Virus record (IMG/VR): IMGVR_UViG_2778261085_000008
Span: 1-16,525 of that record
Reading direction: 5' to 3' (one strand)
From: a virus
Taxonomy: Duplodnaviria > Heunggongvirae > Uroviricota > Caudoviricetes
Length of the DNA stretch: 16,525 bases
The first letter of the stretch is position 1; each line of letters starts with the position of its first letter. A program made the position numbers. Shown in pieces: positions 9,001 through 12,000 of this stretch.

Positions 9001-12000
9001 TGCAGCCAGACGCGAGGACCCGTACTTCAAAGCCAGTTACGACAATGTGGACTACAGCCAGATCCCGGCAGGATTCAGGGGGTGATCATGAGTCTTTTGA
9101 ATGACGTTCAGAAATTCATTGAAGCCCATCCGGGCTGTACTTCCGGAGACATTGCGGAGGCTTTTGCAGGTTACTCACGGCAGCGCGTTCTGCAGTCAGC
9201 AAGCAAGTTACGTCAGAGTGGGCGTGTGGCTCACCGTTGTGAAGGAGATACACGCAGACATTTCCCGCGCCTGACTGAGAGAGCGCAGGAGCCGGAACCA
9301 CAACCAGTTCGTGAAACCAGACCTGTGCGCAATTTCTATGTCGGCACTAACGATCCCCGGGTGATTTTGTGCCTGACCCGCCAGGCTGAAGAACTGGAGT
9401 CGAGGGGCTTATACCGTCGTGCTGCAACCGTGTGGATGGCGGCATTCCGTGAAAGCCACTCCCAGCCAGAACGAAACAATTTTCTGGCGCGTCGTGAGCG
9501 GTGCTTACGGAAAAGCAGCAAGCGCGCTGCATCGGGTGAAGAGTGGTATCTGTCAGGGAATTACGTGGGGGCGTAATGATGACGTTAACTCAATGCCAGC
9601 AGCAGGTGCTGGATATGCTGATTTCTTATCAGAAAGAGCGTGGCTTTCCTCCAACCAATCAGGAGGTGGCAACCATGCTGGGATACCGTTCGGTGAATGC
9701 AGCGGTGGAGCATCTTCGCGCACTGGAGAAAAAAGGCGTCATCACGATAAAGCGTGGCGTGGCCCGGGGTATCACTCTTCATACGGCGGTGAAGGACGAC
9801 GACAGCGAGGCGGTCGGGATTATCCGCGCACTGCTTGCCGGTGAGGCAAACGCCAGGCTGCGTGCAGCCCACTGGTTACATGAGAGGGGCCTGAAAGTAT
9901 GAAGCTAATACTGCCTTTTCCGCCCAGCGTGAACACGTACTGGCGACACCCCAACAAAGGGGTGTTTGCTGGTAAGAGCCTGATAAGCGCAACGGGGCGC
10001 AAATTCCAGAGCGCGGCGTGTGCAGCAATAGTTGAGCAGTTACGTCGTCTGCCAAAACCAACGTCGGCACCTGCTTCAGTGGAGATCGTGTTGTTTCCTC
10101 CAGATAACCGGATCCGCGATCTGGACAACTATAACAAGGCGCTGTTTGACGCCCTGACCCACGCGGGTGTGTGGGAAGACGACAGCCAGGTGAAAAGAAT
10201 GTTGGTGGAGTGGGGACCGGTTATCCCGGAAGGGAAGGTCGAGATCACAATCAGTAAGTACGAAAAAGTGAGTTGCAAATTAGCAACCCGGTAACGGAAT
10301 TGAGCAACACCCTAAATTTGGGTATTACCTCGTTAAGGATACTGTATTTATGAACAGTATATCCTTGATAACTATTAAAAATCGCAGTAAGTTCATCTTG
10401 CATCAACGAAAAGGGAGTGCAGTCCCGAAATTTGTGGAGAAACCAATGAATCAGTTGCTTGTAATTGATGGCGTTTCTGTGCGCCAGTACTTTGAATCTA
10501 ACTACTGTCTTAACGACCTTCAGAAAGCTGCTCTTCTTGCCGCTGGTGAGAATCGCTCCTCCCGTTCGCTGGAAGTTCACGAGTTTATGCGTCGTCCTGA
10601 AACGAAGGCTCTTGTGGAATTACTGGAAGAAGAAACTACGGGAGATTCCCGTAGTATTCCTGTCATCACCATTCAGGGGCGCAATGGTGGGACGTATGTC
10701 TGTAAAGAGCTGGTCTATGCATATGCAATGTGGATCAGCCCGGCATTCAGCTTAAAAGTGATACGTACTTTTGATGCGCTTCATAATTCATCACCAGAAG
10801 AAACCACATCCGATAAAATTAAATCCGGGGTCATTCTGCTTGAATCAGCAGCAAAGACTCTAAATCTGTCAAACTCCTCGAAACTTGGTGCATACAAGAA
10901 ATTATCAAAGGTAGCTGGGCTTCCTGAACTTATGCCGATCTATGCCATTGATGCACCTGCTGATGCTCCAGATGGTTCAAGCCGCCCTACGCTGTCGCTG
11001 AGTGCACTGCTGAAGCAGTATGGCATCCGCCTGACGGCTAATCAGGCATATCACCAGATGGCGAAGCTGGGGATCGTTGAACAACGCGAACGATACAGCC
11101 GTACCGCGATTAACAACATAAAAAAATTCTGGTCGTTGACGGCGAAAGGCTGCATGTTCGGCAAGAACATCACCAGTCCTGCAAATCCGCGCGAGACGCA
11201 GCCGCATTTCTTCGAATCCCGATTCCCTGAGCTGTTAAAGCTGCTCGATACTGTTCACTGATTGGAGGCGTGGAGCATGAGAATTACACCACCTCATCTG
11301 CAGCCAGTTTTATCCAGGGTTAAACGTTTTGTTGAACGAATGCCGGAAGGCGCAACACTGACCCAGATATCACAGAAAGTGCAGGCGTACAGTCTGCTGA
11401 ATAAAAGGGATAAGGAGATACTCATTGGCATTATCCGCGACAGTGGACTTCTGGTCGTTGCGAATGATGGAAGAACTACAACGTTACATCATCCTAAATT
11501 TGGACATCAGGTAGTAAATAGTGAAATACCAGTAAAAACAGAGGAACCCGTTGTGATTAAAAAGACCGTTACTCCGGATGAATTACGCAGGCACGCTGAG
11601 GAGCTGATCAGGGCTGCGGAAGAAGCAGAGAAGAAATTTAATGATCGTGCGGAAATTAAAAAGCAACTGGATCCTCTGAAACTGGAAATCCTCCAGGCGT
11701 ATGGAATGGCAAGTCGTAAATTTGATGAGTTTGTTGATGCTATGGCGGATATGGGGAAGGCGGTACAGAAACTGAAACAGATTGCGCTGTGAGGTTCTAC
11801 GTTGAGAGCACTACTGACCCCTGAAATTGCCCCACGTATGGGGATCGTATTGTTCAGACCAGGTTCAGAGCTGATGCCCCTGTTTATGCAGGGGCGTGTC
11901 CTGCTGGAGCCTGAGCCGGAACGTTATTCATCTTTTGCCAGTGGTGCCGTTCCGGCGGCATCACAACCGCTGGCGGATGATCCTGCCGTTCGAGCCGTGT

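Follow-up and report, generated by a model that had tools for sequence, protein, structure and literature searches.

The yfdN gene and its product

The window analyzed here (the whole stretch of 16,525 nucleotides of the Caudoviricetes record IMGVR_UViG_2778261085_000008 in IMG/VR) represents the early region of a CPS-53/SfV-type lambdoid prophage, and the subject of this study is an open reading frame (ORF) on its plus strand at positions 9088 to 9576. According to the ORF list and the sequence, the ORF starts with the ATG at 9088, ends with the TAA stop codon at 9574 to 9576, and has 162 codons. It is real, and its product is identical at 159 of 162 residues (98%) to YfdN of Escherichia coli K-12 (b2357), which is encoded by the cryptic prophage CPS-53/KpLE1. 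PHROG 1324 ("transcriptional activator") spans residues 1 to 161 with an E value of 2.3e-78. Full-length similarity and an early-right position directly after an O-like replication gene, which together define the YfdN orthologous group and PHROG 1324, were both found; by these measures, the 162-amino-acid (aa) ORF is an ortholog of K-12 YfdN. A RefSeq-style alternative start for the same gene is the GTG at 9082, six bases upstream, which would yield 164 aa. We prefer the ATG at 9088 because a Shine-Dalgarno-like AGGGGG is located on the plus strand at 9077 to 9082, 5 nucleotides (nt) ahead of this ATG, and because nearly all YfdN homologs in our alignment start with MSL. The AGGGGG sequence falls in the final codons of the O-like gene, and the TGA stop codon of that gene (9083 to 9085) just precedes the yfdN ATG, so translational coupling of the two genes is probable.

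The first-pass annotation had proposed that the C-terminal half of this protein carries a PerC/Pch signature and that it is fused to an N-terminal helix-turn-helix-like extension, and the analysis bears out both parts. The signature is present as LESRGLYRRAATVW at residues 103 to 116 (bases 9394 to 9435) and follows the pattern LExxGLxRRAA..W; L103, R111, and A112 are invariant in the homolog alignment, which comprises 37 sequences, 36 of them divergent homologs with 23 to 84% identity. The Pfam PerC profile (PF06069) matches residues 98 to 149 with an E value of 7.6e-9 and, as its 36.2 bits exceed the gathering cutoff of 22.6, the match is not due to chance. All 37 alignment members match the profile at E < 0.01. 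The match covers profile positions 5 to 56 of 90, and positions 57 to 90 are left unmatched by YfdN. The same part of the protein also resembles the ANR family (AraC negative regulators): NCBIfam model NF033650 matches residues 96 to 142 with an E value of 3.3e-5 and 23.6 bits, below its curated cutoff of 32, and it matches 25 of the 37 homologs at E < 0.01 (best E value, 4e-9). At the sequence level, the similarity of YfdN to the ANR family is real but sub-threshold.

The AlphaFold2 model built on the 37-sequence alignment divides the protein into four parts, all encoded on the plus strand. Residues 1 to 60 (9088 to 9267) are predicted to form a winged helix, with helices H1 (residues 3 to 13), H2 (19 to 25), and H3 (31 to 44) and a β-hairpin (47 to 60; wing strands 47 to 52 and 55 to 60) at predicted local distance difference test (pLDDT) values of 90 to 95; in the model, these three helices with their hairpin wing have the arrangement of MarR, BlaI-MecI, and ArsR type winged-helix domains. 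A disordered linker follows (residues 61 to 89, 9268 to 9354; pLDDT, 53 to 54), which is 4 to 31 residues long across the homologs. The PerC/ANR-type three-helix core, which contains the signature, is formed by residues 90 to 144 (9355 to 9519), with helices at 90 to 106, 109 to 122, and 126 to 144 (pLDDT, 94 to 97), and models as a TPR/MIT-like fold. The C-terminal tail (residues 145 to 162, 9520 to 9573) is modeled with low confidence (pLDDT, 57 to 70). It contains the motif W-Y-L-[SA]-G-x-[YF]-x-G at residues 153 to 161, which is conserved in YfdN homologs (in the alignment, G157 and G161 at ≥90% and L155 at 73%) and is lacking from PchE and three short homologs, the short PerC/Pch forms that were examined. 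No Pfam winged-helix family was reported for the window protein, even up to an E value of 10, and the other winged-helix sequence matches are weak (PHROG MarR, 3.8e-5; BilQ, 2.5e-3; PDB profiles from 3e-4). Both domains are basic; averaged over the alignment, the net charge is +3.7 in the recognition helix and wing together and +4.8 in the core. They are also both under purifying selection: relative to sb43, the ortholog in ST64B, the ratio of nonsynonymous to synonymous substitution rates (dN/dS) amounts to 0.19 overall, 0.18 in the winged helix, and 0.13 in the PerC core.

The first-pass annotation had asked whether the N-terminal extension is conserved and had considered that it might belong to a separate upstream ORF in homologs. 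In all 36 divergent homologs aligned, it is part of the same ORF, and the alignment members consist of an N-terminal block of ∼60 residues, a linker, the PerC core, and a short tail in one polypeptide; a search of 1.84 billion cluster representatives yielded ∼18 full-length relatives at 25 to 48% identity. Two PHROGs cover only the N-terminal half (PHROG 23071) or only the C-terminal half (PHROG 2608). We considered a split gene as their source and rejected it, as the short database proteins inspected turned out to be internal deletions, frameshifts, or fusions to the O-like N terminus; among the homologs examined, the two halves were never found as adjacent separate ORFs, and no divergent homolog splits the domains. 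The one-half forms inspected arose by deletion or rearrangement in degraded prophages. The fusion of a winged helix to PerC is the standard architecture of the YfdN subfamily. The 162-aa YfdN differs from the small single-domain PerC form (∼90 to 104 aa with the PerC/Pch C-terminal extension) and marks a distinct two-domain subfamily within the Pfam PerC family.

Three E. coli database proteins (P0023, P0104, and P0135) are deletion fusions in which YfdN has become joined to the winged helix that forms the N terminus of the O-like protein encoded upstream, each with a different junction; in P0104 (13 member sequences), the YfdN winged helix is swapped out exactly at the end of the wing. GTNDP, the start of the PerC core, is a recurrent breakpoint in other truncated forms.

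The unusual character implied for this fusion by the first-pass annotation did not hold up: the architecture is the standard one of YfdN, PHROG 1324 matches over the full length, and RefSeq already names the gene in other genomes "yfdN: PerC family transcriptional regulator." The ortholog Sb43 of ST64B is annotated as "putative transcriptional activator; similar to b2357." By megablast, 49 phage records carry yfdN at 95 to 99% identity, among them those of SfV (orf40), mEp460, and 15 phages converting their hosts to Shiga toxin 2c (Stx2c) production. Matches were also found in 2,674 of 5,426 complete E. coli genomes (49%), nearly all at 95 to 99% identity and in up to four places per genome. 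The gene is therefore widespread. In the literature, yfdN has been termed "the K12 unique PerC homologue" and was deleted ahead of tests of Pch proteins on ler::lacZ (PMC5931665). The remaining mentions examined are list entries (screens and expression tables) and one computational interactome prediction. Among the list entries, yfdN is one of the genes differentially expressed in the nitric oxide response of strain CFT073 (value, 12.61), alongside other prophage genes, and its overexpression from the ASKA library changed glycogen accumulation. No relevant report linking PerC with a winged helix was found in the literature. Neither the gene nor its assignment to PerC is new; yfdN is a very common, ordinary prophage gene, and as a genome-scan finding it adds nothing beyond the existing annotation.

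Genomic setting of yfdN

The window begins with yfdS/R/Q/P-like genes, a cI-type repressor gene (with S24 peptidase domain, on the minus strand), a cro-like gene, and cII (CP76). These are followed by two Ash-family genes, the second of which also has a Rha domain, a 74-aa ORF, the O-like initiator gene, and yfdN. Downstream of yfdN are a gene encoding only a LexA DNA-binding domain (DBD), RusA, KilA-N, a 176-aa ORF without a Pfam match, DUF968, and Q. The assignment of yfdN to the nin region in the first-pass annotation was therefore roughly right, and its exact place is directly after the O-like gene and ahead of the LexA-DBD, RusA, KilA-N, DUF968, and Q genes. The O-like gene (8267 to 9085, plus strand) matches Pfam HTH_36 and DnaD_N. 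The LexA-DBD gene (9576 to 9902, plus strand; Pfam LexA_DNA_bind, E value of 6.3e-19) lacks an S24 peptidase domain, with its start codon overlapping the stop codon of yfdN (TAATG); on both sides, the start and stop codons of yfdN overlap or nearly abut those of the neighboring genes. Because neither a promoter-like (sigma-70-like) site nor a plus-strand terminator-like site was found between 8000 and 10400, yfdN is most simply regarded as part of the early-right transcript. A LexA-DBD-only gene is present in 33 of 34 loci with YfdN and in 5 of 13 YfdN-negative loci that reach RusA, although the samples are not independent.

In many lambdoid lineages, a yfdN-like gene comes after an O-like gene. 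Six lineages in which YfdN is only 27 to 34% identical to the window protein show the same arrangement, with the yfdN-like gene directly following an O-like gene (with HTH_36 and/or Phg_2220_C) and with overlapping stop and start codons. The genes after the yfdN-like gene encode a DNA methyltransferase, the family of which varies, and a LexA-DBD protein; RusA follows in the four longer loci, two of which also have DUF968 and Q. No helicase or loader Pfam domain was found in the called genes of the six lineages' loci or in the early operon of the window. The O-like proteins are mosaics that differ in their N-terminal and middle parts and share a C-terminal tail, ...[VI]D[YN]..[IL]P..GFR[GQS], which is encoded at 9020 to 9085 in the window. 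The codons for this tail vary synonymously, so its conservation is at the level of the protein; it is present in 89 of 92 O-like loci, with or without a yfdN-like gene after it. That the tail is a mere Shine-Dalgarno constraint for yfdN was rejected, since its Arg codons vary (AGG, CGC, and AGA) and it is kept without yfdN. As the tail persists where no yfdN follows, it is independent of YfdN. With no helicase or loader gene detected in the operons examined, the tail may serve to dock a replication protein of the host.

We determined the presence or absence of yfdN in 80 IMG/VR loci related to one O-like protein and in other loci already gathered, which together contained 88 tail-bearing O-like genes with sufficient downstream sequence. 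A yfdN-like gene follows the O-like gene in 38 of these loci and is absent from the other 50. In 43 loci, the O-like stop codon overlaps the start codon of a Dam-type methyltransferase gene that comes immediately afterward. Citrobacter phage phiNP offers an annotated example of an O-like gene running into a methyltransferase gene without yfdN; its O-like protein and one linked to YfdN are 73% identical. Those yfdN-like genes that are most distant are located after recT or in an AlpA-type island, not beside a replication gene. Given its absence from 50 of 88 tail-bearing loci, YfdN is a facultative and not an obligatory partner of the replication genes; yfdN is an optional cassette between the O-like gene and the methyltransferase/nin genes of the early-right operon.

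The window contains several further features upstream and downstream of this cassette. The O-like gene harbors iteron-like tandem repeats at 8532 to 8637 (period of ∼21 to 24 bp, 4.8 copies) and a perfect 12-bp repeat, TGAACCAGTCAA, at 8656 to 8686 (2.6 copies). As in the lambda O gene, these repeats inside the gene probably mark the phage origin. Within the consecutive Ash-family ORFs (6276 to 7112 and 7105 to 8049), two tandem pairs of isrK small RNA and C4 antisense RNA are located at 6636 to 6824 and 7258 to 7446 (Rfam, 59 to 84 bits, all above the gathering score), and they look like a duplicated c4-ant immunity module of the P1/P7 type in a lambdoid early operon. The peptide GQWYTTPAGHVLRVSLVDRE near the N terminus of the 314-aa Ash/Rha ORF recurs in the 74-aa ORF (8046 to 8270), which suggests a local duplication or a recombination scar within 7105 to 8270; in related loci, a DUF4222 gene takes the place ahead of the O-like gene. 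Q (12794 to 13177) is followed by an ORF of the Rce1-like CAAX protease family (13300 to 14118) and then by tRNA-Met (CAT) and tRNA-Arg (TCT) at 15116 to 15270. We take the region after Q to be the one in which Stx-converting relatives carry tRNAs and toxin genes.

Proposed role of YfdN and alternatives

YfdN is a two-domain protein of lambdoid prophages of the SfV, mEp460, ST64B, and CPS-53 type. For its function, we propose the following model. The early promoter would transcribe yfdN only upon infection or prophage induction, and the winged helix would then anchor YfdN, most likely to DNA. The PerC/ANR core would remodel a repressive nucleoprotein complex of H-NS, StpA, and Hha or bind a partner regulator, as its relatives do, and the result would be altered transcription of phage genes and possibly of host genes. 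YfdN would thus be a DNA-tethered version of the Pch anti-silencer. The model draws on Pch, which activates LEE1 (an operon in the enterocyte effacement locus [LEE]) only by relieving silencing by H-NS, StpA, and Hha and which lowers the occupancy of H-NS (PMC4764244), and on ANR proteins, which have three helices and bind to H-NS as well as to AraC-family regulators (PMC4983702, PMC5570504). By analogy with these relatives, we give a probability of about 0.5 to YfdN being a PerC/ANR module that is tethered by its winged helix and modulates silencing or a partner regulator at induction.

Several observations weigh against this model. The best structural matches of the winged helix include protein-binding domains (RPA32C, the MotA N-terminal domain, and ESCRT-II), and the residues of its recognition helix are poorly conserved across the family; DNA binding by this domain therefore remains putative. 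The TPR/MIT-like match of the core is generic for three-helix units. Among the relatives, Pch did not coprecipitate with H-NS in the published experiments (PMC4764244), ler was unaffected by PchD and only slightly affected by PchE, the PerC-like genes of the phage-inducible chromosomal islands (PICIs) EcCIEDL933 and EcCICFT073 have no reported impact on LEE1, and the PICI-encoded EcCIMP1_025 represses LEE1. As PerC family members outside PchABC show no, weak, or opposite effects on LEE1, the function of YfdN is not transferable by homology. Finally, the K-12 entry in EcoCyc and RefSeq still reads "uncharacterized protein YfdN."

The points about protein binding lead to a serious rival, an ANR-like protein-protein mechanism, in which YfdN is an anti-activator whose core inactivates an AraC/XylS-family factor or H-NS by protein contact, with the winged helix serving for dimerization or partner binding and with net repression as the outcome. 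The ANR profile matches in YfdN and in 25 of the 37 homologs, the three-helix structure and binding partners of ANR proteins, a core fold of the peptide- or protein-binding type, and the protein-binding domains among the top winged-helix matches are consistent with it, and the PICI-encoded PerC family repressor of LEE1 has itself been suggested to be ANR-like (PMC11773190). On the other hand, the ANR match stays below its cutoff whereas the PerC match passes its own, ANR proteins are single-domain proteins of <10 kDa, and no AraC-family gene adjoins yfdN in any locus examined. We regard this mechanism as unlikely on balance, yet as the one that deserves most attention after the tethered module. 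Somewhat less probable still is that YfdN is a regulator of lysogenic conversion, made in the lysogen and activating promoters of the host or of pathogenicity islands, such as LEE1, in the manner of PerC and PchABC. It has the PerC family core in its favor, along with the removal of yfdN from K-12 as a possible confounder before the ler::lacZ tests (PMC5931665) and the effect of overexpression on glycogen accumulation. Yet the gene is embedded, and probably translationally coupled, in a repressed early operon with no sigma-70-like promoter between 8000 and 10400; it occupies a core position of that operon, unlike the pch morons; and it is common throughout E. coli of every kind, K-12 and LEE-free commensals among them. 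The minimal effects that PchD and PchE had on ler and the PICI genes without reported impact on LEE1 likewise speak against this reading. The cross-regulation of host virulence loci by a prophage-encoded PerC-like protein that had been envisaged at first is thus possible but unsupported.

A different role, as a replication accessory in the position of lambda P, was suggested by the synteny with the O-like gene down to 27 to 34% identity in six lineages, by the ...IP.GFRG tail shared by O-like proteins of differing bodies, and by the lack of a detected helicase or loader gene in the early operon of the window; the TPR-like core, a peptide-binding kind of fold, would suit an adaptor that docks on this tail and recruits the host helicase. 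The presence/absence data largely refute this idea, and we rejected it: a helicase loader of the lambda P type would be expected to accompany the initiator gene without exception, yet 50 of 88 same-tail loci lack a yfdN-like gene, 43 loci, such as that of phiNP, run straight into a Dam-type methyltransferase gene, and the most distant yfdN-like genes lie after recT or in the AlpA island. Its remaining probability is very small, and smaller again is that of yfdN being a decaying relic without function. In K-12, yfdN does lie in a cryptic prophage, beside a truncated O-like gene (yfdO) and pseudogenes, and many deletion and fusion variants exist; but the overall dN/dS of 0.19 relative to the ST64B ortholog, the retention of both domains down to ∼25% identity, and the occurrence of yfdN in complete, inducible phages are hard to reconcile with decay.

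If the winged helix of YfdN truly targets the PerC/ANR module to DNA, this would help to explain the workings of this family of virulence regulators and the way in which prophage induction might act on silencing by nucleoid proteins. A wider and quite tentative extension, which we consider improbable as it stands, is that YfdN-type proteins are the DNA-targeted phage form of a single PerC/ANR superfamily, in which the winged helix would bring the TPR-like three-helix module to specific sites so that, upon prophage induction, it counters silencing by the H-NS family or captures an AraC-type regulator. Were it true, a latent modulator of xenogeneic silencing, coupled to induction, would be present in roughly half of E. 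coli strains, and loss of the targeting domain would have given rise to the short virulence regulators of the PerC, Pch, and ANR kinds.

Comparison with known relatives

The closest relative, K-12 YfdN, has the same length and the same two domains as the window protein and differs by three substitutions. Like yfdN in the window, K-12 yfdN, SfV orf40, and ST64B sb43 come after an O-like gene, which in K-12 is yfdO. The gene that follows differs; it encodes only a LexA DBD here and a methyltransferase (yfdM or dam) in K-12, SfV, and most of the E. coli matches.

A resemblance between PerC and ANR proteins has been remarked on before (PMC11773190), and members of both families can be compared with YfdN. 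ANR proteins such as Aar and Rnr are predicted to have three helices, across all of which they show sub-threshold profile similarity to the YfdN core; they are single-domain proteins of <10 kDa, are found in genomes with AraC-family regulators, and bind AggR-type activators and H-NS. The PerC-like proteins of PICIs and PchE (ECs_1588) are, like YfdN, encoded on mobile elements. PchE is 40% identical to YfdN over 52 core residues (BLASTP E value, 5e-10), but it is a single-domain protein of 90 aa, encoded after an ssb gene in the primase-carrying island Sp7, and is not of the YfdN type; it represses csgD and curli and enhances flagellar expression. PerC, encoded on the pEAF plasmid of enteropathogenic E. 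coli, and PchA, PchB, and PchC of enterohemorrhagic E. coli, encoded in other prophage or prophage-like regions, have the same basic three-helix core of ∼52 residues with LExxGLxRRAA as YfdN. The PchABC proteins are ∼104 aa long (315-bp genes) and have no winged helix but a C-terminal extension, which corresponds to the profile positions 57 to 90 unmatched by YfdN, whereas YfdN has 162 aa and a predicted winged helix. Anti-silencing of LEE1 has been demonstrated for PerC and PchABC only.

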